Notes under the pieces: model-generated
The model's database searches: none
The model's input: only the letters and a program-made list of their open reading frames with translations
What the model was told of the DNA's origin: nothing
Virus record (IMG/VR): IMGVR_UViG_3300018481_000027
Span: 1-54,002 of that record
DNA: 54,002 nucleotides
Reading direction: 5' to 3' (one strand)
From: a virus
Taxonomy: Duplodnaviria > Caudoviricetes
Made by a program: the position numbers and the translations under genes
Shown: one piece after another, positions 4,231 through 40,027 of the stretch
How the letters are laid out: the number at the start of each line of letters is the position of its first letter
Numbering within the stretch: the first letter of the stretch is position 1

Positions 4231-4269
4231 AAAAAAGAAAAGAGGAGATCGGAATATTACCCTCCTTCT
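4231..4269 (-). ncRNA. promoter-proximal hairpin plus U-tract (tiny RNA or attenuator)
   Basis: AGGAGG...TCTCCT stem followed by CTTTTCTTTTTT directly after the promoter motif at 4270-4295. Confidence 0.45.
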
Positions 4270-4295
4270 ATTATATGGCGCGAATTACATGCGTC
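4270..4295 (-). promoter_or_regulatory. phage promoter motif (variant GACGCA-N14-TATAAT) upstream of the nuclease/RNAP operon
   Basis: minus strand GACGCA TGTAATTCGCGCCA TATAAT. Confidence 0.65.
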
Positions 4296-7424: not shown

Positions 7425-8645
7425 TCACTCCCTTTCGTGTTGGTAGGCGAACTCGTAGAACTCGTCGCCGGTCATGTCGAAATGCTTGGTCTGGAAGCTC
7501 CGCTTCGACTTGAGCGAACGCCAGATGGCCCAGTCGATGGCTGCCTTGGACCGAAGGGCGTAGTAGAAGAGATCGGTGAACGGAGTGTTGATCCGGTCCG
7601 TACGTCCATGACTCTGTTCCCACAGCTTGTACGAATAGGTCAACGACCAGAACACCGTGGTATCCGTGGTGATGCAGTTCCAGCCTTCCGCCCCCGCCAC
7701 GTACTGAACGGCGTAGACCCACTCTTCCGTCTCGGGAATCTCCTCATGCTTGTGCCCATTCCACTCCGCGTAGTTGGTCACGTGCTTCAGCGATCGGAGA
7801 ATTTCCAGCTCGTAGTCGAAGTTGTAGAAGACGATCAACCGTGGATGCTTGGCCATCAGCTTCCGCAACTCTTTCATCCTCGATGGATGAGTGTTGGCCA
7901 CTCGCCGCATCTGCTGGAAGAGATCGGCCACATCGCGGATAGGTTTGTCATCGAACGGATTCCAGCGCCCATGCGATACTCGAGCCATGAGCAGCTCATC
8001 ATGCTCACACCACACGTTGATGGGATGCCGCACGGTTTCCTTGGCGTACGGCATGTGCACCAAAATGGCGTTACGGTGCTTGACCAAGCGGTTGACGTTG
8101 ACGTAGCGCTCGACCTTGAAGTACTTTACGAAGGGGGCCTGGATGACGTGCTCGCCCTTGAACTCAGTCCGGTTTCGGTAGAAGCCGTTGGCTACGAATA
8201 CGGGTATATAGTCTAACCACGTATCGCCGGGTGTCGCCGACAGCATTATCCAGCGGTTCGATTTCGCAATCTTCAGAAACGATTTCGACCACTTCCCAGA
8301 CCCAACCAGTCTCTGTTCGTCGAAGATAAAGAATGCGTTTTTCACCCCCACGTACTTCTCGATGTTGTTCCAGGAATCGACGGTGAGGACACCGTGCAGA
8401 GTAGCTTCTGGATCTCTGCCGATGCCGAACTTGGAGGCTTCCATCTCCCAGTCCAGAGAGTCTCGCTTCTTGGCGGTGGTGATCACGTAAATATCTTCAT
8501 GTTCTTCGGTCAGCGCGTAGAAAGCCAGCCCCACCCGGGTCTTACCTGAGCCCACGCCGCCCCAGAGGATGTTGCCGTCTTCCAGCTTGGCCAGTGCCTT
8601 CTTCTGGTGATCGGCCAGCTCCACCGCCGTGCGAATCTCTCCCAT
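7425..8645 (-). CDS. SF2 (SNF2-like) DNA helicase
   Basis: GGVGSGKT Walker A, FIFDEQ motif II, LSATP motif III, AEGWN motif V, QSHGRTDR motif VI. Confidence 0.9.
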
Positions 8646-26451: not shown

Positions 26452-27096
26452 TCATCGTTGATCGATTGGTTCTGGGGCTGGGAGATCCAGCAAATATCCC
26501 CGACCTCGCATTGTGACGATTCTCGCCCCCCGCAAGGAAGTCCAACCCCACTTGTGATCGACATGACTGCTCTGAATGCCGGTGAGCTCATAGAGCACTG
26601 CGACCGACACCCGCCCATAGCGAGAAAGCTCGTCGTAGAGAATCTCGAGAACCTCTTCGGCCTCTTGGCGATTTACGATCACGATTTCGCCGAAATCATG
26701 ACGTGCTCGAGAACGCTGGGACAGCGAACGAGACGTGGTCGGCTTGCCCGTGCTGATCGCAGAGTAATTCACCTGAGGGCCCTGATTTTGACCAGGATAT
26801 CCCGGAGGACGTCCACCTCGTTGAATGCGCGAATCGCCGAAGATCAGCTTCTGCATGCCCTCGTGGAACGCTTCGAAGAGCATTTCCCGAATCGTCGGAA
26901 CGAAGACGTCGGTCACCACGTACTCGGCTGCCCCACGAGCCGTGCCACCGATGAACGTCTCCTTGACCTTCTGACCAAGTCCGCGCTTTCGCACCTTGGC
27001 TTCGGTGGAAGTGATCTGCTCCCGCCGCTTGGGTTCACCCGGCGGTTCGTCAGATCCTTGCTGCGTCCTTCGACTGTTGCCGGGGAAATCGTGCAT
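26452..27096 (-). CDS. conserved phage hypothetical protein
   Basis: YG.VSVA.LYEL.G, KWGWTSL, GYLLDLP.P. Confidence 0.8.
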   Translation of the reverse strand: MHDFPGNSRRTQQGSDEPPGEPKRREQITSTEAKVRKRGLGQKVKETFIGGTARGAAEYVVTDVFVPTIREMLFEAFHEGMQKLIFGDSRIQRGGRPPGYPGQNQGPQVNYSAISTGKPTTSRSLSQRSRARHDFGEIVIVNRQEAEEVLEILYDELSRYGRVSVAVLYELTGIQSSHVDHKWGWTSLRGARIVTMRGRGYLLDLPAPEPIDQR

Positions 27097-27198
27097 ATAA
27101 ATCCTCGAATTTTGGGTTGGGCAAAAATGAAAGGAGATGATCTTTTCCGAGTTCATCAGTCGGCGACCCCTGGCGGGGTCCTTATCTGGTATCCTTTC

Positions 27199-27224
27199 AC
27201 TATAAGGCGTGGATTCCGCGCGAA
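27199..27224 (-). promoter_or_regulatory. phage promoter motif
   Basis: TTCGCG-N14-TATAGT, abutting a terminator. Confidence 0.8.
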
Positions 27225-27264
27225 AAAAGAGAAGCCGTGTTAGGGCTTCCCTTTCGAGGCGGAA

Positions 27265-27420
27265 CTACTTGGATTGCGCGATACGACGGGCAACTTCCTG
27301 CTTCCAGGCCAGCGAGTTCATGAACTTGCTCCCGGCGGTCAGCAGTCCAGCTGCGACGGCGAGGGCAAGAACAGGATTCTCTTCGGCCTGCTTCTTCAGG
27401 TTGTTGAGGAACTCGTTCAT
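27265..27420 (-). CDS. cassette gene, 51-aa membrane protein
   Basis: translated by hand (MNEFLNNLKKQAEENPVLALAVAAGLL...); RBS AAGGAG; own promoter and terminator. Confidence 0.75.
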   Translation of the reverse strand: MNEFLNNLKKQAEENPVLALAVAAGLLTAGSKFMNSLAWKQEVARRIAQSK

Positions 27421-27446
27421 GGGTCTCCTTAGATTGGTTCTTTCTC

Positions 27447-27472
27447 ATTACATGACGTGTTTTACGCGCGAA
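27447..27472 (-). promoter_or_regulatory. phage promoter motif
   Basis: TTCGCG-N14-TGTAAT. Confidence 0.8.
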
Positions 27473-27507
27473 AAAGAGAAGCCGTGTTATGGGCTTCTCT
27501 TCCGAGA

Positions 27508-27834
27508 TTAGTCCTTCTTCTCGTCAGTCTCTTCAGCGGCCTTCTTGGCTGCGCGATTGGTCTTGTAGTTCTCGTAGCGCTTGGCGGCGTAGTCGAAACT
27601 TGCATCGACGAGCTTGTCCGTATAGGGCTGGGCATTCGCCGCAACTCCCCAGCCAACCATCGGGGATCCGACCTTGACGATCATGTCGTCCTTGTCGAAA
27701 CCGGTGTAGTTGGTGGCGAGGTTTGCGGTAATTACCGTAACCTTGTACGAAACAAGTCCGAAGACAAGCTTCTTCACGGCGTTGCGCGCGGTGAACTGCG
27801 ACTCGTTGTCGTCAGTCTTTTCGGGCTGGGTCAT
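27508..27834 (-). CDS. cassette gene, hypothetical protein
   Basis: between promoter 27870-27895 and a terminator at about 27471-27500. Confidence 0.8.
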   Translation of the reverse strand: MTQPEKTDDNESQFTARNAVKKLVFGLVSYKVTVITANLATNYTGFDKDDMIVKVGSPMVGWGVAANAQPYTDKLVDASFDYAAKRYENYKTNRAAKKAAEETDEKKD

Positions 27835-27869
27835 GAAAATACTTCCTTTCAGAGGGGTTTGTAGGTCTC

Positions 27870-27895
27870 ATTATACAGCGTGAAATATGCGCGAA
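27870..27895 (-). promoter_or_regulatory. phage promoter motif
   Basis: TTCGCG-N14-TATAAT. Confidence 0.8.
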
Positions 27896-27904
27896 CCGCG
27901 TGTC

Positions 27905-28385
27905 AAACCATCCCACCGTTCGCACTCTACTGGCGCCGTCGCAGGAGACTAAAGCCGGTCTTTCGTAGAGCAAATCATCAAGAGGGCGCAATGCGGGGAA
28001 CCTTGAGCCAGGCTCCCCAATTTAGCTGTCATTTGAGATCGAGCGTGTTCGCTGGCGGGGAGGTTTCATGACCCCACGAAGACGCAGATCCCCTCTTGGT
28101 GCGTGTAAATATGGTCCCGATGATCGCTCTGAGTTATGCATACGCGATTGAACACTCAGATAAAGTCAAGGACTCCGTCGTTACGAACCTTGACCCACGA
28201 CCATCGGGCTGAGACCCACCCCATCCTTTACCAGGAAGGCTTTGGGTCCTAAAGAAGATAGACTTGAGTGGACGCGTACGGACGATTCCTCCCAGGCGCC
28301 TGACGGCTGCACCCAGATCGTGCCATTTGCTGTCGTTGACTACTACCGAGCGCATTAGCCGCTGGTATCCACTCAGGTTGACCCT
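27905..28385 (-). ncRNA. large structured non-coding region
   Basis: nested inverted repeats; no credible ORF. Confidence 0.5.
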
Positions 28386-28391
28386 ATCTCT

Positions 28392-28997
28392 CTAGGAGAG
28401 CTTGTAGCGGCCGTCTGCCAGACCGGCCTTCAAATCTTCGGCGTCCATGTCGCCCATCTCGGCGACCGTGATGACGCGTGGTTCGGTGACGGCGGGCGTA
28501 ACCGTGTCACCGTTGGCGAAGGCTGCCTCGACCGCCGCTTCTTCCGACGAGGGCCCGTCCTTGGCCTGCTTCTCCGCGATCGCGCGCACCTCCGCAGCGA
28601 TCTTGTCGAGGTTGTGCGGGATGATGCCGTTCATGAACTCGGCGGCTGCTTCGGCGCTCGTGCAGAGATCGAAGATGAGCTGGGAATACGCCTCCGTGGA
28701 GGAGAAATCATCCCAGATCGCCTGGTTCTTGATGAACCGGTCACCTTCCTTCTTGCCGTAGGAGCGCCGGATGATGTCCCGCATCTCCTCCATGATCGCC
28801 TTGCCGTCCTGGGCGTCGACGATACGTTGAAGCTTGGCCTGCATGCCGGTGAGCGTCTTGCCCTCGCTCTCGTACTTGGTGCCGTGCTCTTCCATCTCCA
28901 TCTGGACCAGATCGGCCTTGGAGATATGGAAGTAGTGTTCCTCCGTCACCTCCTGCTGGGTGAACGGGTTCTCGTAGACGATCGTCTTCTTCAGCAA
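28392..28997 (-). CDS. conserved phage hypothetical protein
   Basis: LKKTIVY, YFHISKA, SYGKK..DRF.K, F..TEAYS.L, AAEF.NGI. Confidence 0.8.
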   Translation of the reverse strand: MLKKTIVYENPFTQQEVTEEHYFHISKADLVQMEMEEHGTKYESEGKTLTGMQAKLQRIVDAQDGKAIMEEMRDIIRRSYGKKEGDRFIKNQAIWDDFSSTEAYSQLIFDLCTSAEAAAEFMNGIIPHNLDKIAAEVRAIAEKQAKDGPSSEEAAVEAAFANGDTVTPAVTEPRVITVAEMGDMDAEDLKAGLADGRYKLS

Positions 28998-29462
28998 AGC
29001 GAAATATCCCCCTGGTTGGATTCGCGAAGCCTTTGCTCGGTATTGTGCGCTTCACGCATTAGCCGCCATAGACTCCGAGGCGACACCCTGCTAGTACTAC
29101 TTCTCGGCGAGCAGCTTGTCGGCGAGAAACGCCAGCCCGGCGAGGGCGGCGATCACGGAGATGATGATGAGCACGAGCTTCATGTAGCAGTCACCTCCTC
29201 CTCGGACGTAGGCTCGTCGGGCTCTTCGGAAGCGGTCTTGGCACAGAGTGCCGTGATGGCTCCGGCGATGAAGCCACCGACCGTGCCGATGGCGAGAAGT
29301 GCTCCCAGCACGATGCCGACGAGAGCGCCGATGGTGAACCTCACGGCGTCGTCACCGTCTCGTCTCCGGGGGCCTTCGGGTCGTCGCCGAGGAAGACCCG
29401 GATATAGCCGGTGTGGTAGCCCATGGCGATGGCTCCGACGGCCACGCCGAACAGGAAGTGCT

Positions 29463-29744
29463 TCATGGCGTCTCCTTCGCGAGCTTCTTGAGCTCCCGCT
29501 TCGCCTTCAGATCCTTGACGATCGTGCGACCGCCGTGGATGGCCAGCAGGGTGACGCCGGTGGCGACGATGCCGCTGGCGATGGCGATGGGGGTGCTGTG
29601 GGTGCGGAAGTTGAAACCGATGAGCTCCACGGCGTGGTCCTTCGCGTGCTCCGCGGCCTCCGCAATATTGCTGGCAGCGTAACCTGCCTGTCGAGCAGCC
29701 AGCTCAGCGTGCTCCTGAGCCAGCTCCTTGGTTGCTTCGGACAT
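29463..29744 (-). CDS. small membrane protein
   Basis: C-terminal TM helix. Confidence 0.7.
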   Translation of the reverse strand: MSEATKELAQEHAELAARQAGYAASNIAEAAEHAKDHAVELIGFNFRTHSTPIAIASGIVATGVTLLAIHGGRTIVKDLKAKRELKKLAKETP

Positions 29745-29777
29745 TTACTCTCCTGTGTTGGTGAAATATGACGGTGT

Positions 29778-30086
29778 TCAGGACCCAGTGCGACCGGCCA
29801 TGTAGCGGAAGGCGCCGACGACGAACATGCTCGCGCCCAGCCCCATGAGGGTGCCGCCCCACACCCGGTTGTCCTGCGCGGCCATTTCGGCCGTCTTGTT
29901 GACGACAGTCCGGTTGATCACCGGAGGCTCGTTTCGGAGCCGGGTGATCTGCTGGTTGAGACCGCTGATCGAGACCTTCTGGTCGGCGATCGTCTCGGTC
30001 ATCTCGTTGTACTTCTCGATCGCGATCTTCACGAACCCGTCACTTGCCGTCTTGAGGGTCTCGACGGTTTCGTTGGTCTCAGCCAT
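29778..30086 (-). CDS. small coiled-coil membrane protein
   Basis: coiled coil plus C-terminal TM; RBS. Confidence 0.7.
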   Translation of the reverse strand: MAETNETVETLKTASDGFVKIAIEKYNEMTETIADQKVSISGLNQQITRLRNEPPVINRTVVNKTAEMAAQDNRVWGGTLMGLGASMFVVGAFRYMAGRTGS

Positions 30087-30381
30087 TGTACTCTCCTTGT
30101 GCTGTGACTCGTGTTCTAGTCGTGGAAGAACTTTTTGGACATGGATATGCCGGGCAAGTGGTAGTACTCCTCCTTGAGCGGAGTGGGTAGACTTACCCGA
30201 AGCGGTAGCTCCGCGATACCTTTAGGGGCACCTTGCGGAGGCTCCCAGCGCCGAGCGTCGTCACGCTTTTGATCACGCATGGCGGCTAGAAGTTTGGACC
30301 GAGGATCTTTAGACCGACCCCTCCGACTGTGCCATGATCTGTGCCATGACATCAGCCGGAGCTCGGGTTCTGCGAGACGGT

Positions 30382-31188
30382 CTAGTTGTGGTTTGGGCGG
30401 ATGAAATCCTGTCGCGGGAAGGCCGCGAAGTCGATCGCGAGACAGGGACGACCGTCAGGAGCTTCCGCCGTGGTGATCTTCAGCTCCAGAAGGTGATCAC
30501 GATTCCAGCCGACCTCCTCCGACCAGACGGTCTTCTCGAGGCCGAGTTCGTTGTAGAAGAACGTCGCATCGGCGTAGTCGTGATTGTGGATCTCCGCGTT
30601 GGTCGCGTTCTGCGCCCGCTTGATCCCCTCCATCGTGCCGCGGAAATATCGGTTCGTGGCCTCGTCGTAGCAGAGGATCTCGCCCTCGATGATGACCAGG
30701 TTCTGGAAACCGTCGGACTTGTTCACCCGATCCTGGGCGAGCTCGTCGTCGATGGCGATCTTCTTCGGGCCGGTGAGCTTCTCGGCGACCTTCTCCTTGT
30801 ACTCGGAGAGGTTACGCTCGGCCAGCCCGTAGGCAGCAGCGAGGGCAGCGGCCTTCTGAGCCGACACCCGGTTGGACATGATGATCGCCGCGATCGTGGT
30901 GCCGCCGACGAGGACCGGCGGGAGGAAATACGGAATGGCGATCCGAGCCTTCGCCCAGTTGTCGAGCTGCGGACGAGGCTGATCGACATCGATGACGGTG
31001 TCACCGGTCTCCTCAGTCATCATCTTGTACTGCGTTGCGCGGACGATCTCGGCGTACTTGTATCCGCCTCGTCCAGCGAGCACGGCGGTGGCGACGGTTC
31101 CGACGACACCTCCCGCGGTGAGGAGAGCGGCGGCATTGTCCTCAGCGAACTGAGACACCGTCTCCTTGATTCCACTTAGAAACTGCAC
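30382..31188 (-). CDS. DUF6353-like phage protein, paralog B
   Basis: LLTAGGVVG.VATAVLA, AALAAAY, YD..T.RYF, FY.ELGL, VGW, PCLAIDF. Confidence 0.75.
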   Translation of the reverse strand: MQFLSGIKETVSQFAEDNAAALLTAGGVVGTVATAVLAGRGGYKYAEIVRATQYKMMTEETGDTVIDVDQPRPQLDNWAKARIAIPYFLPPVLVGGTTIAAIIMSNRVSAQKAAALAAAYGLAERNLSEYKEKVAEKLTGPKKIAIDDELAQDRVNKSDGFQNLVIIEGEILCYDEATNRYFRGTMEGIKRAQNATNAEIHNHDYADATFFYNELGLEKTVWSEEVGWNRDHLLELKITTAEAPDGRPCLAIDFAAFPRQDFIRPNHN

Positions 31189-31227
31189 TCTCCTGAACTC
31201 CTTGAGATTGGGGTTGGGTCTCACGAC

Positions 31228-31283
31228 AAAAAAAGAGAAACCTCGCATTGGCATGCGATTGCGTTTTTACGCTGGTCTCTCCT
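31228..31283 (-). ncRNA. small RNA cassette A (three-way junction)
   Basis: GAGAGACC/GGTTTCTC outer stem, GCGT-AAAA-ACGC and TCGCAT-GCCA-ATGCGA hairpins, T7, directly after a promoter. Confidence 0.65.
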
Positions 31284-31309
31284 ATTAGATGACGTGAATT
31301 TCCCGCGAA
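31284..31309 (-). promoter_or_regulatory. phage promoter motif
   Basis: TTCGCG-N14-TCTAAT. Confidence 0.8.
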
Positions 31310-31635
31310 TTCGGGTCAACCCAGAAAACGCAGAAACGACGGGTGGTTCGAGGCGGCCGATTCATCCATCGAACCTCCGCCATGTCCCACCCTCTCTCGC
31401 CTGTTGCTCGCTGTTTACGGAGTTCTTCGAACGCTTCGTCAGGATCATCCGTAGTAAGCAAAATATGGTGTACAAGCTGTTTAGGCGGTGGGCCAAGACG
31501 ACCTTCTCGTCTCAAGCGATCGAGTCTTTTACGAGTCGCTTGCTCCTCGATGTCCCGGCTCCTCCGGCGCTTGTCCTGAAGATATAGGCTTTCAGGAGTC
31601 ACCGGAGGAGCAATGAGCCTTGTCGGGTACTGCAC
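31285..31635 (-). CDS. hypothetical protein
   Basis: co-oriented ORF; 3' end overlaps the promoter. Confidence 0.55.
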   Translation of the reverse strand: MQYPTRLIAPPVTPESLYLQDKRRRSRDIEEQATRKRLDRLRREGRLGPPPKQLVHHILLTTDDPDEAFEELRKQRATGERGWDMAEVRWMNRPPRTTRRFCVFWVDPNSREIHVI

Positions 31636-31638
31636 TCG

Positions 31639-32022
31639 TTAGGCGACGACGGGCTGCGGCTTCTTGCTCACCCAGGTCGAAGCGATGAGGAATAGCGCCG
31701 CGAGCATCGAGACGTAGAGCCCCCAGCTCGGCGAGATGAACTCCGCCGCAGCCTCCTCAGCGCCACCGAGGTTGATCAGGCAGCGAACGCCTTCGCCGAT
31801 GACCGCCAAGCCGACGATGATCGAGACGGGCCGCATGAACTTGCCGGTGAGAGCGGAGGCGATGATGAGCGCGGTGCCGCCGAAAACGACGAGACCGAGC
31901 TCGATGCTGTTGGTGGGGCCGACGCCGAGGATGCCGAAGACGCTGAACCAGGGGCCGATGCCACCGAAGATCAGTACAACGGCGCCGATGGCCAGCGCAG
32001 TGTTACGGTTGAAATTGAACAT
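31639..32022 (-). CDS. multi-pass membrane protein
   Basis: about 4 hydrophobic segments; GPW and WGLY motifs. Confidence 0.8.
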   Translation of the reverse strand: MFNFNRNTALAIGAVVLIFGGIGPWFSVFGILGVGPTNSIELGLVVFGGTALIIASALTGKFMRPVSIIVGLAVIGEGVRCLINLGGAEEAAAEFISPSWGLYVSMLAALFLIASTWVSKKPQPVVA

Positions 32023-32032
32023 GTTGGTCTCC

Positions 32033-32326
32033 TTAGTGCTGTCGATGCCCGGGATCGGGCGTGATTGGATGGGGCTTGTCGGACTCGGGTAGATCGTATG
32101 CCTCCCGATACTGCTCTTCGATCCGCTTCATCGCCCGACGATCAGACGAGTCTACGGATATGAAGGTGACGCGGTCCCTTTGACCCTTGAACGTGATGTC
32201 CACGAGTCTAAGGAACTTCCTCTGGCGCCGTTCGATCACGATTTGGTTGATCGCGACCAGTAGAAGCTTGGCGATCTGCCAAGCAACGACGCCGAGAATG
32301 AAATATGCGATGTCTCCGTCGTTCAT
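32033..32326 (-). CDS. small membrane-anchored protein
   Basis: N-terminal TM. Confidence 0.65.
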   Translation of the reverse strand: MNDGDIAYFILGVVAWQIAKLLLVAINQIVIERRQRKFLRLVDITFKGQRDRVTFISVDSSDRRAMKRIEEQYREAYDLPESDKPHPITPDPGHRQH

Positions 32327-32541
32327 CCCTGCGGTCTCCCTCGTCGATCGACGTAAAGCCCCTCGGGGAGCGCTGCTTGTGCTACTTTCAGCGCTTCGTC
32401 GAGGAGCAAAAGCACGTTCTCCGGTTCTCCCCGGAAGACTATGTAGAAGCCACTGCCTTCTTTCATGTCTCCCAGGGAGATACGGGTCTTCATCAGTTTG
32501 TCATCCGACTCGCGGATGATGGACACCGGAGTGGGAGTCAT
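32323..32541 (-). CDS. hypothetical protein
   Basis: coupled ORF. Confidence 0.6.
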   Translation of the reverse strand: MTPTPVSIIRESDDKLMKTRISLGDMKEGSGFYIVFRGEPENVLLLLDEALKVAQAALPEGLYVDRRGRPQG

Positions 32542-32793
32542 TGGTGCTCGCGATCGACCTTAGTCGTATTGGAAAACTGCTTCTTCTCCCGGTACTCACG
32601 GCACGGACAAACTCGGCACGGCCAAGCGAAGGGCTTCTCAAGATCTGGAGGATGTGCTCCCAAATCGTGACCGCATTCGCAGGCCATCAGTAGAACCTCC
32701 GAAATCGTCTCGGGAGGCCCTGGATCTTGCGTCGGGTGCTGCGGCGACCGGCCAGAAATCCAGCCCAGTACGCCACCTTGATGAGCGAGAGCT

Positions 32794-33060
32794 TCATGAT
32801 TCTATCACCGGTCCTCCTCCGCGCTCGAGATCGGGGCGAACTATCAACGTGGGCGGAGATGTGGTCATGTCATAGGCACGCATGGCGTAATAAGCGCGCA
32901 CCTCGACATCGCTTTCCCGAAGCCAATTCTCGATGGCTTCGGGCCCACTGCAGGCCATCTCCAAGGCCTCGCGTGCGGTACTACCGACTCCTGCGAACGT
33001 CGGAGGAGGACCTGACCAATCGATGCTGTTTCGGAGAACGATATAGACGACGTTGGTCAT
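32794..33060 (-). CDS. hypothetical protein
   Basis: coupled ORF. Confidence 0.55.
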   Translation of the reverse strand: MTNVVYIVLRNSIDWSGPPPTFAGVGSTAREALEMACSGPEAIENWLRESDVEVRAYYAMRAYDMTTSPPTLIVRPDLERGGGPVIES

Positions 33061-33353
33061 CGCGGTACCACCAGACGGACCGCTCTGACATCGAGACGCA
33101 GATGGTCGGCGATTGCGAAATCTGTGTAACCAGCCTCTCGCATTTCCCGAATCACACCGGGTATCGCCGCTTCTTCGATCTGAGCTCCGTCGAGAAGATA
33201 CTTCATGATCTCTACGGCGCTCATCGACTTAGTCACCTTCTCATTCTCATTCGTGAGTAACGTACCCGCTCGAGCGAAGAGCCCGTCCGAGTAGGCACCC
33301 AGAAAATTAGAAGCGACGAAACCGACGAAGAATCCTGCAACGAGCTTCTTCAC
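33057..33353 (-). CDS. hypothetical protein with an HTH-like C-terminus
   Basis: GYTDFAIADHLRLDVRAV. Confidence 0.6.
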   Translation of the reverse strand: MKKLVAGFFVGFVASNFLGAYSDGLFARAGTLLTNENEKVTKSMSAVEIMKYLLDGAQIEEAAIPGVIREMREAGYTDFAIADHLRLDVRAVRLVVPR

Positions 33354-33628
33354 GGCTTATCCCCCCTGAGGAGAGCGGCGAAGTTCAGGAGCTTCTTGCC
33401 CCGCTCCTCCAGATCGGCGGCAATCTGGTCAGCCGTCTTCGTCGTGGCCAGAACGGGCATGCCGTTCTTGAGCAGTTGGTACACCCAGCTCTCGCTGATG
33501 CCCATCTCCTGAGCGATGGCACGGTTGGTCATACCTTTGTCCTTGAGCTCTCGCACCTTGGTCAGGCGCTCCTGCATGCGCTGCTTCTGCTCGGCGGCCC
33601 TCTGGGCTCGTTCTTCGGTGATCTTCAT
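33350..33628 (-). CDS. helix-turn-helix DNA-binding protein
   Basis: ELKDKGMTNRAIAQEMGISESWVYQLLK. Confidence 0.8.
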   Translation of the reverse strand: MKITEERAQRAAEQKQRMQERLTKVRELKDKGMTNRAIAQEMGISESWVYQLLKNGMPVLATTKTADQIAADLEERGKKLLNFAALLRGDKP

Positions 33629-33900
33629 TGACCTCTCACTTTCTGGATAAGTTTGCGAGTGACGATGGCGAACGGGCCGAAGAACACGATGCAGGTTATC
33701 GTGAAGGCTGAGTAATCCCTGAACAGCTCTTCGACGGTATACCTTTCATCTTTCTTTCCTGCAGCGATCCGTTCCTCGACGATCTTGTCCGTCAGTTTGT
33801 AGACGTAGATCGTACCCACAATCACAACCGTGATCATGAATATCCACAGGTTTGCGCTCATCGGTTTCTCATCTCGCGGACGAAGATCCAGAGCAACCAC
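33625..33900 (-). CDS. two-TM membrane protein
   Basis: two hydrophobic segments. Confidence 0.6.
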   Translation of the reverse strand: MVALDLRPRDEKPMSANLWIFMITVVIVGTIYVYKLTDKIVEERIAAGKKDERYTVEELFRDYSAFTITCIVFFGPFAIVTRKLIQKVRGQ

Positions 33901-34023
33901 AGGCCACCAGAGAGCATGACCATGAAGCAGTCGAACAGGAAGCGCATGACGCCATAGCGTCGCGGCGGACGAGACGTGATATAGACACGGTCGCGCGGCG
34001 CCTTGCCGTCGTAGTAGAAGACC

Positions 34024-34329
34024 TTAGGCATCGGGATTCTCCTCGGGATACTTGTCGGCGATCTCCTTCAAACTGGCTTGAATGCCCTCCAGGATGACCT
34101 TGTCGAACTCGCTGGGCTCGACGTCGTTCTCGTGGATAATCCGCCACAGCTGGTTGGCCTCCTGGATCAATTCCTTGATCACCAACGTTAGATCGTCTCG
34201 TTCGTCTATGACCATCTTGAGCGACTTGAGAAGCCGCTTGATCTGGAATATCGCGATGATGTTGAGGCCATACGATCCGCCGACGAGCACCCACGGATAT
34301 GTATCCGACATGATGAAACGCCTAAGCAC
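34024..34329 (-). CDS. membrane-anchored coiled-coil protein
   Basis: TM plus ENDVEPSEFD, similar to the C-terminus of 11931..12173. Confidence 0.65.
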   Translation of the reverse strand: MLRRFIMSDTYPWVLVGGSYGLNIIAIFQIKRLLKSLKMVIDERDDLTLVIKELIQEANQLWRIIHENDVEPSEFDKVILEGIQASLKEIADKYPEENPDA

Positions 34330-34502
34330 CGTACTTCACTCCCTTGGCGGAGGGGTTGCGCTTGAGAGCGCGCCGTTCGGCAACCTCTCGCGACGCGGCC
34401 CGGACCTTGACAGTACGGGTCATGTTGTTCTCGTAGACGAGTACGATCGAGAACACCTGCTTGGACTTCTTGGTCCGCATGGCGGATCCTTTCTGTTGGG
34501 TG

Positions 34503-34586
34503 AAAAAAAGAGAGACCCATGTTGTCTCAGTGCCTCATAAAGGCTCTTCAACTCTGGTGCCTCATAAAGGCTCCAGCATGGGTCTC
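34503..34586 (-). ncRNA. small RNA cassette B with two identical hairpins
   Basis: GAGACCCATG/CATGGGTCTC outer stem enclosing the 17-nt direct repeat GAGCCTTTATGAGGCAC twice; T7. Confidence 0.7.
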
Positions 34587-34612
34587 ATTATGTGGCGTGA
34601 ATTTCCCGCGAA
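34587..34612 (-). promoter_or_regulatory. phage promoter motif
   Basis: TTCGCG-N14-CATAAT. Confidence 0.8.
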
Positions 34613-35035
34613 CTAACCCGCGGCCAATCCTTCGATGACGTAGTGCATCTCCTGGAGATTGTCCAGATGACCGTTACAATGCCGGGACATAGCATGCAAC
34701 GTGTTTCCTGTTGCTTCCGCAGCCGCCTTCATAGACGGCCACATCTGATCAGTCTCGAGACACCGGATGATCTTCCGCGAATAACCACCGTTGTTCACGA
34801 TGTTGTTGATTATCGGAGCCACCGTGTTGTTGAACACCGGGGCAATAGCCGGAGCCTCGATGACGTTGGTGATCATCGTCGGCCGAGCGAACTGCCTGGT
34901 CACGATGACGCTGACTATCGCGGTGGCTCCGCAGGCGTAGACCACCTGATACTTCACGACATGAGCCTTGACACTGCGGAAGGTCTCGTTAGTCTCCTCG
35001 AGCTTCTCGATCCGTGCCTTGAACTTATCGAACAT
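34613..35035 (-). CDS. membrane-anchored protein with a NUMOD1-like DNA-binding domain
   Basis: TM plus IIRCLETDQMWPSMKAAAEATG...MSRHCNG; start reassigned to ATG 35035 after AGGAG. Confidence 0.7.
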   Translation of the reverse strand: MFDKFKARIEKLEETNETFRSVKAHVVKYQVVYACGATAIVSVIVTRQFARPTMITNVIEAPAIAPVFNNTVAPIINNIVNNGGYSRKIIRCLETDQMWPSMKAAAEATGNTLHAMSRHCNGHLDNLQEMHYVIEGLAAG

Positions 35036-35065
35036 CCTTGCTCCTAGTTTGGGGTATGGTCTCAG

Positions 35066-35129
35066 AAAAAAGAGAAGAGGATCGGGAGGATTAGGTTTCC
35101 GATCATGCCGACTGGGTCGGTCTCTTCTC
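35066..35129 (-). ncRNA. small RNA cassette C (three-way junction)
   Basis: GAGAAGAG/CTCTTCTC outer stem, CCGAC-CCA-GTCGG and GATCGG-13nt-CCGATC hairpins, T6. Confidence 0.65.
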
Positions 35130-35155
35130 ATTAGGTGACGTGAATTTCCCGCGAA
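35130..35155 (-). promoter_or_regulatory. phage promoter motif
   Basis: TTCGCG-N14-CCTAAT. Confidence 0.8.
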
Positions 35156-35596
35156 CTACTGGCTCGCCTTGATCGAAGCCTTGGTGCCGAGCATCCGGCA
35201 GAGCAGATTGATCGAGTCGTGCCCGTGAAGTGGCTTGTAGCCTGGGTTGAGATTGTCCTGCTGGTTGCGATGAATCACCTGATCGAAATCGCGCTTGAAC
35301 TCTGGTGAGCGGTAGTAGTTGACCACCTCTCCGAGAGTGTGCTGGTAACGAGTGAGAAACATCGAATCCGCATGTTCCTTGACCTTCTCGGCCCACTCGC
35401 GAGAGGGACGCGGCTCCTCGCCGTGCTCGACGAACTGCATGGCGTCGTTATAGATGCGATCGACCACGAGCTGCTTGAGCTGCTCGACGGTATACATGTG
35501 CGTGGCCTGCAGCAGCGGCAGGTTCCAGATGGGCTCCGGGCGTCCGTGATGAATGCCAACGGTGAGGCAGTTGTAGCCCCAGTTGATTTCAGTCAT
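35156..35596 (-). CDS. hypothetical protein
   Basis: ATG 35596 after AAGGAG. Confidence 0.7.
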   Translation of the reverse strand: MTEINWGYNCLTVGIHHGRPEPIWNLPLLQATHMYTVEQLKQLVVDRIYNDAMQFVEHGEEPRPSREWAEKVKEHADSMFLTRYQHTLGEVVNYYRSPEFKRDFDQVIHRNQQDNLNPGYKPLHGHDSINLLCRMLGTKASIKASQ

Positions 35597-35598
35597 GG

Positions 35599-35907
35599 TT
35601 ACTCTCCTTGCGTTATGTTGTAAAAATAGTACTTGATTCCCCGTCGATCCGAAAAACTCCAAGGATGGGGGAGGAAGGTTACGTCAACGACATCGTCTGA
35701 AATATCGTTGAATTGCTCAACGGCAGTGTTCCAGTAATGGTGTCCGACGGTGATCTTACGAACTTCGCCGTTTAGCTCGACCGAAAACTCGCCTCTACCT
35801 ACACGTTGCGGGGTTTTTATACCCTTGATCTCCCGAACTTCTAGATCGGGACGCGAGAGAAGTTTTGCTCCTTTCCACGTCACCAACTCTTCCGGATTCC
35901 AGTCCAT
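35599..35907 (-). CDS. hypothetical protein
   Basis: coupled ORF. Confidence 0.65.
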   Translation of the reverse strand: MDWNPEELVTWKGAKLLSRPDLEVREIKGIKTPQRVGRGEFSVELNGEVRKITVGHHYWNTAVEQFNDISDDVVDVTFLPHPWSFSDRRGIKYYFYNITQGE

Positions 35908-36413
35908 TACTGTCGTTGTTCTCCTGGTCGACGTTTACGCGGAATTCGATTTATCGCCAAATCACGCGCGTCACTGGTACTCAAATATGGTGTATCCGGC
36001 CAGATTCCCTTGCGATAAAGATCTAGCCGATCGGCGTCCCAGCACACAGCGATGGTGGGATCGGTGCTGATCAGTCCATCACTGTGCTCTACACAGGCCT
36101 CGAAAAACAGCTCTTGCCGTCGCTCAGTGAGCAGCTGTCCGAGGATGAGTTCGTGACGCTGGTTGATGCGCTCCCACAGCGTGAAGCCACGCATGCCGTG
36201 ACCCGGGTCGTCTCCGTCGTTCACGCGCATGGAGTCGTGAAACAGCGCATATAGAGCCACGACCTCGAGGTCTGCGGTGATCTCCGTCCCGGTCAGTAGT
36301 TCAGCATTCTTCCAAACGCGGAACCAGTGATCGAGTCCGTGCATTCGACTCTGCAGAATATTCAACGTGCTTGACTCCATCAGCACGTAAGGCAGACACC
36401 GAGCAGCGATCAC
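35907..36413 (-). CDS. HD-domain phosphohydrolase
   Basis: HGLDHWFRV, ALFHDS, HG..G, EH, CWDADRLDL. Confidence 0.85.
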   Translation of the reverse strand: MIAARCLPYVLMESSTLNILQSRMHGLDHWFRVWKNAELLTGTEITADLEVVALYALFHDSMRVNDGDDPGHGMRGFTLWERINQRHELILGQLLTERRQELFFEACVEHSDGLISTDPTIAVCWDADRLDLYRKGIWPDTPYLSTSDARDLAINRIPRKRRPGEQRQ

Positions 36414-36640
36414 GGCTTAGCCGGGCTTTGCCAGGTGTGTGGCGTGGCTTCAGCCCCCTTGTCGTGCCCCTTGGGTAGGTAGCAAGGGATGTTCGTTCCT
36501 GGATGACAGGTTGGATCGCTATGATCCGGAGGGACGAGGCACTGCTCCTCCCGGGAAATAAGATCGGTCATGCTGCTCCTAAGATTGGTCAGGGGGTCTC
36601 AGAAAAAATGAGAGCCCGTGTGAGGGGCTCTCATTGGGCA

Positions 36641-36859
36641 CTACGCGGGGTGGTTGATGCGTGCGGTCTCGAGGTTGAGGCGAGCGGTCTCGAGGTTCAT
36701 CCGACCGGTCTTGATGGACACGATCACGGGAACCGCCGTCAGGGCCAGCGGAATCGTGGTGACTCCGACGGTGACAGCGATGCTCTTGATGCGGTCCAGC
36801 TTGGACGGCTTGATGGCCTCGACGTTGCGCTCGGCCTGCGACTCGTTGTGCGGGGGCAT
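36641..36859 (-). CDS. cassette gene, small membrane protein
   Basis: TM; internal repeat NLETARLNLETAR. Confidence 0.7.
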   Translation of the reverse strand: MPPHNESQAERNVEAIKPSKLDRIKSIAVTVGVTTIPLALTAVPVIVSIKTGRMNLETARLNLETARINHPA

Positions 36860-36951
36860 AGCAACTCTCCTAGAGTTAGTAGTGGCTTTCATTATGTGGC
36901 GTGAAATTTTCGCGAAAACGAAAAAGGAAAGCCCCTGTGTGGGGCCTACCT

Positions 36952-37113
36952 TTAGGCGTAGATCTGAACAATGCCGGGGACGAGCGTGGTCTCCTCCAGC
37001 TTGGCCTGTGACGTAGCGATCATCTTCTCGTAACGGTACGCGGCGACGAAGTCGCGGATACGGCTACGGTTCTCGGTGATCTCGGTCTTGATGGCCGTGA
37101 TGGGGTTGAACAT
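36952..37113 (-). CDS. cassette gene, 53-aa protein
   Basis: translated by hand (MFNPITAIKTEITENRSRIRDF...); RBS AGGAG. Confidence 0.7.
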   Translation of the reverse strand: MFNPITAIKTEITENRSRIRDFVAAYRYEKMIATSQAKLEETTLVPGIVQIYA

Positions 37114-37216
37114 AATAGTCTCCTAAGTTTGTGTTTAGTCTTCTATTATACCCCGTGAAAAACACGCGAATTGCAGGGAAAAACCTAGAGACCGTGTTAG
37201 GGTCTCTTGGTTTGAA

Positions 37217-37408
37217 CTAGAACTTGCGGGCGAGGATGACGGTGGCGTTCGGCTCAAGTGTGGCCAGAGCATCGACATGTTCCTGGATCTTGCGCTGACG
37301 CTCCTGCTCCTCCCCAGCTGCAGCGAATGCAGTGAGGACGAAGAGGGCGGCGCAACCCAGGCCAGTGCCGGTGTTACGGGCGTACTTCTTGGCGGTTTCC
37401 TTGGTCAT
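37217..37408 (-). CDS. cassette gene, small membrane protein
   Basis: TM; RBS. Confidence 0.75.
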   Translation of the reverse strand: MTKETAKKYARNTGTGLGCAALFVLTAFAAAGEEQERQRKIQEHVDALATLEPNATVILARKF

Positions 37409-37500
37409 GGTTTTCTCCTTTTGAGTTTGATTTAGTTCTCATTAGAGGCCATGAAATTCCCGCGAAACTGAAAGCCCGTGTTAGGGGCTTTCGAGTTTGA

Positions 37501-37620
37501 TTAGCTCTTCTTCGCGAGGCGAAGGTCGTTCAGAGCGATCAGGGACATGAGGGCCATGCCGACCCACGGGCCGGTCTTACGGGCGATGGGGGCGGCAACA
37601 GCGATCTGGTCCTTGAGCAT
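37501..37620 (-). CDS. cassette gene, 39-aa membrane peptide
   Basis: ATG 37620 after AAGGAG. Confidence 0.7.
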   Translation of the reverse strand: MLKDQIAVAAPIARKTGPWVGMALMSLIALNDLRLAKKS

Positions 37621-37717
37621 TTGAATCTCCTTGCGTTTGAGGTTGATACTTCTCACTATAGGGGGTGAAAAATACGCGAAGCCCAAAAACCAAAGGCCCG
37701 GATTAGGGGCCTCAGGT

Positions 37718-37801
37718 TTAGAGGAAAATCTTCCACTGGATGAAGATTCCATTACCGAAGTCTTCGATCATGATGATCGGCTTGGGCTTCTTGGTATGCA
37801 T
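37718..37801 (-). CDS. cassette gene, 27-aa peptide
   Basis: MHTKKPKPIIMIEDFGNGIFIQWKIFL fills the space between promoter and terminator. Confidence 0.55.
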   Translation of the reverse strand: MHTKKPKPIIMIEDFGNGIFIQWKIFL

Positions 37802-37899
37802 GGGGGTCTTTCTGGTAGAGGGGATTGGTCTCATTAGATCCCGTGAATTCTACGCGAATGCAAAAAAAGAGAAGCCGTGTTTTGGCTCCTCTCTTGAGG

Positions 37900-38136
37900 T
37901 CAGTCGAGGGGGTTGTTAGCTTGTGCGTTGTGTAGCTCTATCTGAAGTCTCAGCTTCTCCACTTCGAGTTCAAGTACGTACACTTGCGCATTGGCTTCAA
38001 ACTTCGCCGTCTTCATCTTCGCGTATTGCTTGTGAAGTTCGGTGAGGGTGAAATATGCGGCAGTGCCGTACACGATCTCTTTGGGGACCTTGTTGAGGCT
38101 TTCGAGAAAGCTACCCAGAAACAATAGGTCGAACAT
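37900..38136 (-). CDS. cassette gene, hypothetical protein
   Basis: RBS; flanked by the motifs. Confidence 0.75.
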   Translation of the reverse strand: MFDLLFLGSFLESLNKVPKEIVYGTAAYFTLTELHKQYAKMKTAKFEANAQVYVLELEVEKLRLQIELHNAQANNPLD

Positions 38137-38218
38137 AATCTCCTTTCGTTTGATCTCATTAGAGGCCGTGAAATAGACGCGAAAAAGGAAAGACCGTGTA
38201 TGGTCTCTCCTCTTGAAT

Positions 38219-38434
38219 CTAGAACTGCAGAATATGCAGATCGCTGTCGTTCTTGAATGCTTCGAACATCGACTCCTGGTCCATGATCTGCAGGTTGAAC
38301 TCGGTATTGCTGAGGGGCGTTAGGACCATGTAAACATCGTCTCCAAACACCTCGCTAACAGCATCGTTACCGGTCAACTGACTGATCACACCACGGATGT
38401 CGTCTCCGAGCATAATAGCAAAGCGGGTAGGCAT
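38219..38434 (-). CDS. cassette gene, hypothetical protein
   Basis: ATG 38434 after AAGGAG. Confidence 0.75.
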   Translation of the reverse strand: MPTRFAIMLGDDIRGVISQLTGNDAVSEVFGDDVYMVLTPLSNTEFNLQIMDQESMFEAFKNDSDLHILQF

Positions 38435-38516
38435 AAAGTCTCCTTGGGTTATAGGTTCATTATATGCCCTGAAAAACCCGCGAAAAAGGAAAGCCCGTGT
38501 GGACTCTCCTATGGAA

Positions 38517-38741
38517 CTACTCGATGATCTTGAAGATGATGTAGGTAATGTTGTGGCCAGCGATGGGTACATCGATGACGATTCCATACTTACCAGGCTC
38601 GATGATTACTCCTTCCTGGATGGCATCGACAAGAGCCATTGCGTATGGCTTCTCGTCGGGCGTGTTCCAGGTAATGGGTAACGTAGGCATGGTGTCGAAA
38701 TCGACGACGAACACTTCGCGACCGTCAACGGTCTGCAACAT
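38517..38741 (-). CDS. cassette gene, hypothetical protein
   Basis: ATG 38741 after AAGGAG. Confidence 0.75.
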   Translation of the reverse strand: MLQTVDGREVFVVDFDTMPTLPITWNTPDEKPYAMALVDAIQEGVIIEPGKYGIVIDVPIAGHNITYIIFKIIE

Positions 38742-38935
38742 GTTATCTCCTTGTTTGAGTGGGTTCATTATAAACCGTGAAATATACGCGACCGCGGGTC
38801 AGTATCTATTCGAATTACGAGTCAATATCTGAGCCTTTCACGGAAATTTCCCCCCGGGAATTTTTCAATTTTCGAAAAAAGAGAGGACGTGTTTTTCACA
38901 CGATCCTCTCCTTCGTAGCCTTTCGTGAGGCTAGC

Positions 38936-39226
38936 TTACCGTGGTCTCGCGATGAAACCAAAGGCTTTCGGCGCTTTGATCACATTCTCCTTCTCGTAGC
39001 GAGCGAGCCAGAGGATGCCGAAGATGTTGGCGGCGACGAGCAACACGGTGTCCGGGCTGACACGCAGCTTGGGCCGTTCTTCGGCCTTGAGCTTGTGCAG
39101 CTTGGACACCCTGTCGATCATTGCCGAATATTCATTCGACGACTTGTCCTCCATCTCGCGCAGCTTGGCGAGCAGAGTGTTGATCTCAGCATCGAGCTTT
39201 GATTCGGTTTGAGTTTTGGTAAACAT
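38936..39226 (-). CDS. cassette gene, conserved membrane-associated phage protein
   Basis: VSPDT.L.VAANI.GIL....YEK..VI...KAFGF. Confidence 0.8.
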   Translation of the reverse strand: MFTKTQTESKLDAEINTLLAKLREMEDKSSNEYSAMIDRVSKLHKLKAEERPKLRVSPDTVLLVAANIFGILWLARYEKENVIKAPKAFGFIARPR

Positions 39227-39425
39227 TACTCTCCTTGATAGGGTCTATTATACGGCGTGTTTACGCCGCGAACCCCTTCCCCATCCTGTTTACCCCTACC
39301 TCACGACATTGACTACAACCCGGGGAGGTTGACCACCGCTGCTATAAGCGCAATCAGGAAAAGTGCGCAAAGGCAGACGAAGAATATACCGAACCCACTC
39401 AATTCGCCTAGATCGTAGCCCCCCT

Positions 39426-39812
39426 TCAGCGAGCTCTGGAACGCTTCGCTCGAGGCTTCTTGGGCGTCTCGTCGACGTCCAAGATCCCCTTCGTCTTGTT
39501 GACCTTGAACACGACTCGATCCTTGCCCTCCAGGTCGTACTCAGGATCACCGTCCAGCTGCAGGTCGAAGGTCTTGCCCTCGTGGGTCTCGTGAACGTTC
39601 AGAGTCCCCTGCGCTGTGGTGCTGTTGTAGTTCGTGGACGAGATCTGCAGGATCACGCCCAAGAACGTGTCCACCGCCACGATCGAGCCGACCACCTGTT
39701 CGGCCGCGGGAAGACCCCAGATCGCAGCCAAGGTGAAATACAGGGTGCCCGCCGCCGGGAAGGCGACGAGCGCGAGGAATTTCAGAACGTTGTACATCTT
39801 GCCGGTGATCAT
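39426..39812 (-). CDS. holin (Dp-1-like)
   Basis: MYNVLKFLALVAFPAAGTLYFTLAAIWGLP...VDTFLGVILQISS. Confidence 0.85.
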   Translation of the reverse strand: MITGKMYNVLKFLALVAFPAAGTLYFTLAAIWGLPAAEQVVGSIVAVDTFLGVILQISSTNYNSTTAQGTLNVHETHEGKTFDLQLDGDPEYDLEGKDRVVFKVNKTKGILDVDETPKKPRAKRSRAR

Positions 39813-40027
39813 GGACTCTCCTTGGTCTTGCTTTGCTGTTCTCGCTCTTTCCGCGCGTCGTCGAGCCGTTGTTTCGAATATACGGCTCCCGCAGTGATCA
39901 GCCCGACGACGATCCCCCCGAGAAACTGAACCCGGTCACCCGGATCCAGAATATCGATCGCCCCGATGGCCAGGACGGTGCTGAAGAACGCAGCTATCCC
40001 CGCCCATAAAGCGACCTGATGATTCAT
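39809..40027 (-). CDS. small two-TM protein, lysis cluster
   Basis: two TM segments next to the holin. Confidence 0.7.
   Translation of the reverse strand: MNHQVALWAGIAAFFSTVLAIGAIDILDPGDRVQFLGGIVVGLITAGAVYSKQRLDDARKEREQQSKTKESP

Follow-up and report, generated by a model that had tools for sequence, protein, structure and literature searches.

Candidate small-RNA modules that may double as operon gates in a phage with a YonO-like RNA polymerase

In phage lambda, the PR'-tR' region (the source of 6S RNA) places a promoter close to an intrinsic terminator, a short RNA is made, and the long operon behind is reached through Q read-through. Here we describe units of a similar kind in the record of an uncultured soil phage, IMGVR_UViG_3300018481_000027 (Duplodnaviria; Caudoviricetes), the whole of which (54,002 bases; completeness estimate, 92%) was analyzed and is called the window below. 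In four units, A to D, and less clearly at a doubtful fifth site, a promoter box leads straight into a sequence predicted to fold as RNA, closed by an outer stem that we call the clamp and ending in a T-run. We think it probable, if only just, that A to D (perhaps with the fifth site, 4231-4269) are small RNA (sRNA) modules that double as operon gates. They resemble PR'-tR' in that a promoter is followed by a terminator and the operon behind is reliant on read-through. They differ in that lambda has one such site and the window four or five, in that the stem here appears to begin at the first transcribed bases and encloses hairpins, and in that relatives include units with no operon behind them. 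The scans here (10 and 7 proteins) revealed neither a Q-like gene nor a Q-binding element.

Three further systems invite comparison. CsrB, RsmY and RsmZ are protein-sponge sRNAs with repeated GGA hairpin motifs; unit B and its relatives likewise repeat one small hairpin on a terminator-ended RNA, but their loops are A/U-rich (with a UAU tip) and two or three copies sit on a closing stem. CsrA is not known as a feature of Actinobacteria. The boxB hairpins of lambda nut and the put sites of HK022 are promoter-proximal, phage-specific leader hairpins that head long operons. The units share with them promoter-proximal hairpins before long operons and sequences specific to each phage; unlike them, they run at once into a U-tract terminator, their hairpins differ between units of one phage, and stand-alone versions exist. 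With intrinsic terminators and terminator-embedded sRNAs, finally, they share a G+C-rich stem before a U-tract on the sense strand, whereas here a multi-branch loop of 40-110 nt lies within the stem, whose 5' arm comes right after the promoter box.

The promoter motif itself has been published. In Gordonia phages of cluster DJ, a 50-bp intergenic motif that precedes genes and includes TATAAT has been described as a possible sigma70 -10 element (PMC9671010), and it and the motif of the window belong to one promoter family (TCGCA/TTCGCG, an ACACG-type block, TATAAT and GAGACC). The DJ motif is likewise repeated before small mid-genome genes, in phages with the same YonO-like polymerase gene. Folded-RNA cargo units, clamps and identical-hairpin RNAs are absent from the part of that paper that describes the motif (PMC9671010), and searches of literature listings, with Summer et al. 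2011 outside their scope, turned up no paper dealing with either kind of RNA, cargo units or identical hairpins, in this group of phages. What is added here are the four or five units, the link of B to the CCUUUAUGAGG hairpin group and the operon gating that each unit may exert.

Clamped units on the minus strand of the window

The preliminary description of this DNA had reported three promoter copies (31284, 34587 and 35130) followed directly by an outer stem, two hairpins and T6-7, and the folds, stems and T-runs are all there. In A, B and C, the promoter box leads directly into an outer stem with two inner hairpins, followed by the closing arm and T6-7. The minimum free energy (MFE) is -23.9 kcal/mol for A (z -4.79), -38.8 kcal/mol for B (z -5.39) and -23.6 kcal/mol for C (z -3.33), and in each case 0 of 200 shuffled sequences folded as well. 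The outer stems of A-C enclose three-way junctions of 40-57 nt, unlike simple short-loop terminator hairpins, and a simple terminator scan picked up just the inner hairpins of the units. A fourth unit, D, was missing from the preliminary description (MFE -25.6, z -2.27; 6 of 200 shuffles as good). The units and their promoters are as follows.

35130-35155, minus strand: promoter of unit C (TTCGCGGGAAATTCACGTCACCTAAT), adjoining the stop codon of the upstream gene
35066-35129, minus strand: unit C RNA, with an 8-bp clamp (GAGAAGAG/CTCTTCTC), two inner hairpins and T6
34587-34612, minus strand: promoter of unit B, a copy of the motif
34503-34586, minus strand: unit B RNA, with a 10-bp clamp (GAGACCCATG/CATGGGTCTC), two hairpins, and TC followed by T7
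31284-31309, minus strand: promoter of unit A, a copy of the motif
31228-31283, minus strand: unit A RNA, with an 8-bp clamp (GAGAGACC/GGTTTCTC, 31274-31281 with 31235-31242), two hairpins and T7
27199-27224, minus strand: promoter of unit D, with an ordinary ACACGG-loop terminator just before it
27123-27198, minus strand: unit D RNA, with a 7-bp clamp (GAAAGGA/TCCTTTC), two hairpins, and A followed by T5
4231-4295, minus strand: variant promoter (box ending at 4270), weak hairpin and TTTCTTTTTT, a doubtful fifth unit before the last operon

A stem of the intrinsic-terminator type followed by a U-run is thus present in the sequence and fold of A, B and C, is weaker in D and is poor at 4231-4269. 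The first inner hairpin of D (GACCCCGCCAGGGGTC, 27161-27180, minus strand) is similar to the hairpin that Streptomyces BI phages have as their standard terminator (GACCCCGCAAGGGGTT, from Rima).

From box to T-run the units measure 49-77 nt, and no credible ribosome binding site (RBS) with start codon lies inside any of them. We built a detector that accepts a clamp of at least 6 bp starting no more than 4 nt past the box and ending no more than 4 nt before T5 or a longer run. It passed 4 of 17 promoter sites. Of 80 other TA[AG]T sites it passed 2, namely the unit at 4270 and an ordinary gene together with its terminator, and of 5000 positions picked at random it passed 26.

The promoter-like motif, TTCGCG-N5-TTCACG-N4-TAAT-GAGA, was seen in 18 copies on the minus strand, which holds nearly all genes of the window. 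A search with TTCGCGGGAAATTCACGYCAC, allowing up to three mismatches, gave four matches, all on the minus strand, where 0.01 was expected and 0 of 100 shuffles gave four.

31289-31309, 34592-34612, 35135-35155 and 36896-36916, minus strand: matches to TTCGCGGGAAATTCACGYCAC in the motif search

In the early array at 36.6-39.3 kb, the usual order is ACACGG-loop terminator, promoter, GAGACC...CCCAA leader, RBS and small gene, and the nine single-gene units there carry no RNA unit. This leader is C/A-rich (GAGACC-N-(C)AACCCCAAAC) and is found again and again, in some places directly behind TAAT and in others behind the T-run of a unit (e.g., 35040-35060 and 31195-31222), and the 5' arms of ordinary terminators (GGAGAGACC, AGAGAAGCC) resemble it, a likeness that could drive the shuffling of modules by short-repeat recombination. 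When A or C is removed in silico, the usual junction between TAAT and the GAGACC...CCCAA leader is recreated, as if each unit were a module inserted at the boundary of promoter and leader.

Known RNA families do not account for the units. Rfam 15 gave no match at the gathering score anywhere in the window (tRNA, Y RNA, pRNA and 6S included), permissive Rfam searches of 30000-40000 and 26900-27400 placed nothing on the units, and ARAGORN found no tRNA genes in the window. With no Rfam match, identities with phi29 pRNA, Y RNA and 6S were dropped. The proposal that the C-rich loop of C pairs with Shine-Dalgarno sequences gained no support, since 29 of 100 shuffled loops did as well. The antisense idea as a whole was rejected (the duplex energies of seven loop or hairpin segments with 134 crude translation-initiation regions were no better than those of 100 shuffles each); for antisense pairing by the B hairpin, 27% of shuffles were as good.

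Each T-run of A-D is followed within ~20-45 nt by a normal leader, an RBS and a gene that has no promoter copy of its own. The earlier statement that the promoters are followed by no RBS and gene is thus correct for the first 55-85 nt and wrong beyond each T-run. Similarly, "ORF-less cassettes" is apt to the extent that no credible open reading frame (ORF) lies inside the units, but they do not stand alone in the window, where none of the five is followed by a second promoter. Because the promoter of each unit is the only one seen for the genes behind it, termination must be leaky, incomplete or regulated, and from their layout the window units would also act as promoter-proximal terminators or attenuators, not as stand-alone cassettes. 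The operons in question are long: B heads ~3.2 kb of genes, up to A; A heads the DUF6353 gene and ~3.3 kb; and D heads a ~14.6-kb replication operon that includes DNA polymerase. A promoter at 12205 heads 7.9 kb without an RNA unit. The features concerned are listed here.

36607-36635, minus strand: ordinary terminator with an ACACGG loop (z -5.2), behind which comes a GAGACC leader but no promoter
34613-35035, minus strand: 140-amino-acid (aa) gene that follows C, lacking its own promoter copy and any Pfam or PHROG match, with unit B next
34322-34480, minus strand: gene for a 52-aa basic protein, the first behind B; the next motif copy comes only at 31309
30382-31188, minus strand: DUF6353/phrog_2152 gene behind A, a profile match

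Four genes (36571 to 35156) lie behind the terminator at 36607-36635 without a promoter copy, and as a consequence read-through of that terminator is seemingly needed. The operon behind B also encodes a 92-aa helix-turn-helix (HTH) protein (33350-33628, minus strand) with an HTH_23 match (E 2.7e-8) and weak matches to sigma70 region 4, which we regard as a candidate regulator.

Related RNAs in cultured and uncultured phages

The two inner hairpins of B are copies of one sequence.

34557-34573, minus strand: B hairpin copy 1 (GAGCCTTTATGAGGCAC), with core CCTTTATGAGG
34530-34546, minus strand: B hairpin copy 2, 17 nt, identical to copy 1

The core of this hairpin, CCUUUAUGAGG, is common to Perkunas (Gordonia) and ReqiPepy6 (Rhodococcus), and the 11-mer CCTTTATGAGG occurs twice in B, three times in Perkunas and twice in ReqiPepy6. 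The equivalent in Avazak, CCGTTATACGG, has compensatory changes on both sides of the stem. When 10 hairpin units, taken from four phages, are compared, 78.9% of the cells are paired, versus 57.1 +/- 2.9% after shuffling (reached by 0 of 500) and 36.7-48.8% in slid registers, five of nine pairs are changed on both sides, and the covariation score is 0.390 versus 0.115 for shuffles (0 of 500), results that, coming from few and related sequences, are supportive and not conclusive. B has a closing stem past the box and more than one copy of a single hairpin. It thereby joins a group of identical-hairpin clamp RNAs (two or three copies on such a stem) that we define here from Avazak, Perkunas, ReqiPepy6, Odesza, Pherobrine and the uncultured relative G001. 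The conservation of its hairpin fits a docking or decoy RNA, so far as sequence can tell. Anticodon-loop mimicry by the UUAUG loop was considered and dropped, as other members have UUU, AUU or longer loops.

Among viral contigs, the doubled CCTTTATGAGG pattern occurred in six stretches, one of them ReqiPepy6 and five in unrelated contexts, and the B clamp pattern occurred in seven, with G001 alone related. The clamp RNA of a second uncultured relative, G002 (unit at 23529, minus strand), contains TTATGAGGCAC, an 11-mer of the 3' half of the B hairpin, in another predicted pairing; it may be a permuted relative or a coincidence.

The best evidence comes from cultured relatives, in which the design carries RNAs that are themselves conserved. 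The 226-nt gap between gp35 and gp36 of Gravy reads terminator, promoter, 125-nt clamp RNA with T6, promoter, gene (unit at 7651-7775 of locus L081; GenBank 29650-29774). Another Gravy unit lies at L081 15657-15775 (GenBank 37656-37774). Blastn with the gap between gp35 and gp36 gave 66 records, 21 of them covering at least 80%; 14 loci were fetched, of which Pherobrine matched via the promoter only. At 7 of 13 further cultured-phage loci holding the Gravy-type RNA, there is no annotated feature between the flanking genes. The ~115-nt RNA that we call family 1 occurs in G001 and in 14 phages that have been cultured, ReqiPepy6 and ReqiPoco6 among them. When 11 family 1 sequences were folded jointly with RNAalifold, 13 pairs resulted, and 8 of these show compensatory change in one or more of the sequences. 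The same 11 served to build a covariance model, R1, which found a new copy in G002 (57.9 bits, E 2.3e-12), a genome not among the building sequences, whereas its matches in Gravy and G001 were; a search of the window with R1 gave no match at E up to 1. The copies in uncultured relatives are these.

G002, locus L064, 19048-19176, minus strand: family 1 RNA
G001, locus L058, 10444-10573: family 1 RNA

In G002, an RBS and a gene come immediately behind the family 1 RNA and no second promoter intervenes, as in the window, and the leader-type and stand-alone layouts are therefore two settings of one kind of RNA gene.

The clamp also holds other cargo. In ReqiPepy6, a tRNA-like gene fills a clamp of its own, and in Fazel, a tRNA-like body and family 1 share one clamp; the two tRNA-like genes score 42.1 and 42.8 bits with the Rfam tRNA model (gathering score 29), and ARAGORN calls that of ReqiPepy6 and not that of Fazel. 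Both (ReqiPepy6, L094 170-242; Fazel, L092 216-282) have unusually short anticodon loops, and the acceptor stem of the ReqiPepy6 gene, labeled tRNA-OTHER in GenBank, is lengthened to ~14 bp by the clamp. The locus ahead of Gravy gp55 holds a family 2 clamp RNA in Gravy, Pherobrine, Odesza and ReqiPepy6, whose clamps differ in sequence and keep their complementarity. The locus also carries RNAs with identical hairpins on a closing stem: CCCCGTTATACGGAG three times in Avazak, CCCCTTTATGAGGAG three times in Perkunas, the CCTTTATGAGGAG hairpin twice in ReqiPepy6 and a 21-nt unit twice in Pherobrine. A 267-nt unannotated, gene-free region of Gravy behind a terminator (L081 13757-14023; GenBank 35756-36022) is a further large structured element, closed by a long-range stem of ~27 bp (GACTGTTAACCCACCAGGCGCTAGGGA...). 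In the Streptomyces BI phage Rima, the intergenic regions examined held a promoter and terminator array and no RNA unit; a relaxed version of the detector gave only whole-gene false positives in Rima and missed the known Gravy unit.

The promoter is common to four IMG/VR records, and the design was found in three uncultured relatives, with five units in G001 and, by detector count, three in G003 and one in G002. One unit of G001 lies at a C-like place and one ahead of the DUF6353 gene, and two tandem units have the clamp of B (GAGACCCAT/ATGGGTCTC), one of them with a 19-nt hairpin twice. Two units of G001 (30443 and 36376) have a second promoter downstream, as have the Gordonia family 1 units, and 30444-30573 is a fully insulated 130-nt unit with no ORF (terminator, P1-RNA-T8, P2-gene); unit 15004 of G003 has the layout terminator, P1-RNA-T, P2. 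At the place equivalent to A, there is a three-way junction in G000, a single long hairpin in G001 and a plain 13-bp hairpin in G003, and in both G001 and G003 the DUF6353 gene has a promoter directly followed by a terminator. The shared three-way junction that the preliminary description took as the mark of the class is therefore frequent but does not define it, units at equivalent places in relatives enclosing 0-4 inner hairpins. B has its hairpin core in common with Perkunas and ReqiPepy6 and its clamp sequence with G001, and A, C and D have no sequence match. What A, C and D have in common with relatives is design, or topology, and position, not sequence.

Wider searches extended this set little: the full promoter pattern occurred in three stretches of viral contigs and a looser pattern in 46, with more than one copy at the G001 locus only, and a metagenome scan with the gene between C and B gave three loci, all 99.9-100% identical to G001.

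Transcription start, operon gating and competing explanations

In nearly every unit, the 5' arm starts 0-2 nt past the box. In a permutation test on 26 units, the mean ungapped helix was 6.65 bp with a unit's own 3' arm (a value lowered by three rows with a mis-trimmed 3' end) and 4.71 bp with the arms of other units, and 0 of 5000 permutations reached the observed mean. Where the bases from +1 to +4 are other than GAGA, the 3' arm follows (GAAAGGA/TCCTTTC in D, AGAAGAGAA/TTCTCTTCT in G001 and GAGAGG/CCTCTC in Secretariat). The fit of the clamp to the first bases favors a start immediately past the box, which would point to an enzyme other than the sigma70 holoenzyme.

A candidate enzyme is encoded by the phage. 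A 962-aa protein (window 499-3387) matches phrog_4291 over its full length (E = 0); its homologues occur in 250 cultured phage records, all below 60% identity, with Arthrobacter (95), Gordonia (55), Streptomyces (54), Lactococcus (13) and others as hosts. According to a preprint on the supercluster to which such phages belong, this protein has the DxDGD motif of YonO/crAss-like two-barrel RNA polymerases and terminal HTH domains (10.1101/842583). The window also encodes a 1278-aa primase-polymerase. Judged from the DNA polymerase, the cultured phages closest to this one are those of Gordonia cluster DJ and Rhodococcus ReqiPepy6/ReqiPoco6 (61-62.5% identity); megablast of 30000-36500 found no close DNA relative among cultured phages, and four soil DNA runs compared with 26900-39400 gave short low-depth pieces only, with no listed variant inside the units.

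The reading of the units as sRNA modules that double as operon gates is supported directly by their structures, by their enrichment at promoters, by the conservation of the design and of cargo RNAs in relatives and by the covariation of clamps and hairpins. From sequence we infer start, termination, read-through and any action in trans as follows. The units would belong to a class common in actinophages that encode a YonO/crAss-like single-chain RNA polymerase, each module consisting of a phage promoter and an RNA whose first bases past the TA(A/T)AT box pair with its last bases. The clamp, enclosing 0-4 hairpins and abutting the U-tract, would double as an intrinsic terminator. The first transcribed base would be the one that follows the box or lie no more than 2 nt from it, and most transcripts would stop at the U-tract as RNAs of 55-85 nt in which the two ends are paired; a minority would read through, or be helped through, to supply the only mRNA for the genes behind, and the same structure would halt transcripts from the upstream gene. 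In the subclass to which B belongs, the two or three identical small A/U-tipped hairpins on a closing stem would most likely be docking sites for a protein. The claim that these are dedicated sRNAs thus gains from relatives, which use the design for conserved RNAs, and from the conserved B hairpin, and loses in that the window units also gate genes.

A more specific version, possible but in our view not probable, is that all 18 promoter copies are read by the phage's own polymerase, starting right after the box in a geometry impossible for the sigma70 holoenzyme. The clamp RNAs would then dock or sequester a partner (e.g., a phage antiterminator-like protein or a host defense or RNA-processing enzyme) and gate the middle and replication operons.

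Several points weigh against the sRNA-module reading. If transcription started ~7 nt past the box, as from a sigma70-type -10 element, the 5' arm would be untranscribed and the outer stem lost, and the folds of A, B and C truncated in this way have z values of only -1.35, -2.08 and -2.05. Every unit in the window is the sole promoter seen for the genes behind it, and a role purely in cis would suffice. At the A site, relatives keep a promoter-proximal terminator and not the RNA body, and A, C and D have no sequence relatives among the fetched sequences beyond trivial matches (T-runs). D is marginal by its z value, and the 4231-4269 hairpin is not significant alone (z +0.23). To these we add the mis-trimmed rows of the clamp-matching test, the few and related sequences behind the covariation tests, and the public RNA runs checked for 30000-39500, none of which matched this phage.

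The strongest alternative, which we nevertheless judge unlikely, takes each unit as a terminator nested with a promoter, an insulator that makes no sRNA. A host sigma70-type start ~7 nt past the box would lie inside the 5' arm, only transcripts from upstream would stop, and the promoter-born RNA would keep the hairpins as a 5' leader, perhaps as a stabilizer. The box is indeed often a perfect TATAAT, base 7 or 8 past it is usually A, and removal of the first 6-7 nt abolishes the outer stem; A, B and C directly adjoin the stop codon of the preceding gene and no separate terminator lies there, no other promoter serves the downstream genes, and relatives at the A site keep only a hairpin and T-run. 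However, the motif has no -35 element at 16-18 bp, and a consensus scan gave no sigma70-type call for these copies. An ordinary terminator already sits just upstream of D, of G001 30443, of G003 5364 and 15004, of the G002 unit and of all Gordonia family 1 units; there a second terminator would be redundant, and the clamp is thus unlikely to serve only for stopping incoming transcripts. Stand-alone units, moreover, run straight into a second promoter, and on this explanation clamps formed from +1 to +6, as in Secretariat, would never form in their own RNA, yet they covary.

We give still less credence to a leader that acts in cis by antitermination or attenuation, in the style of lambda nut/N, HK022 put or PR'-tR'/Q, with hairpins that recruit a phage factor or act on the polymerase such that the clamp and later terminators are ignored, the long operons are timed and the short RNA is a by-product. 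That units head multigene operons (B ~3.2, A ~3.3 and D ~14.6 kb) while the nine single-gene units have none would suit it, as would the genes behind the 36607-36635 terminator that also need read-through, the 52-aa basic protein gene right behind B, and hairpins that are identical within a phage and different between phages, recalling the specificity of N for boxB. Against it, the 12205 promoter heads its 7.9 kb with no unit, the hairpins of A-D are mutually unrelated, such that no single factor could read them all, and the stand-alone units of relatives end right before a fresh promoter, where a tethered RNA would be pointless. PHROG and Pfam scans of 10 and 7 proteins, not the whole proteome, gave no N-, Q- or put-like family.

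Most improbable of all is that the units are not RNA genes but empty cassettes, from which a gene between the GAGACC leader and a similar GAGAG...CTCTC terminator stem was deleted, or DNA-level sites such as operators or origin iterons behind a promoter: terminator 5' arms do resemble the leader start, short-repeat deletion could fuse promoter to terminator, G003 10515 and 4231-4269 are bare hairpins of such a kind, and the B repeats are small palindromes near replication genes, but the inner parts fold far better than shuffles, relatives hold conserved RNAs and tRNA-like genes, all features are strand-specific, with U-tracts on the sense strand only, stems include G-U pairs and covary, and the A site has the same position in three genomes.

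Significance for the supercluster

The supercluster takes in hundreds of cultured phages that infect Arthrobacter, Gordonia, Streptomyces and Rhodococcus, has relatives among Lactococcus and Faecalibacterium phages, and its members carry an uncharacterized single-chain RNA polymerase. If the units make discrete RNAs, the clamp rule (5' arm from +1) would offer a handle, from sequence only, on where that polymerase starts and stops. Even if the units are only nested terminators, they are still a neat case of phage operon insulation. If discrete RNAs are made, the units would define phage sRNA genes so far missing from annotation and open to study in BSL-1 Gordonia systems. The identical-hairpin RNAs are candidates for protein docking or decoy functions.

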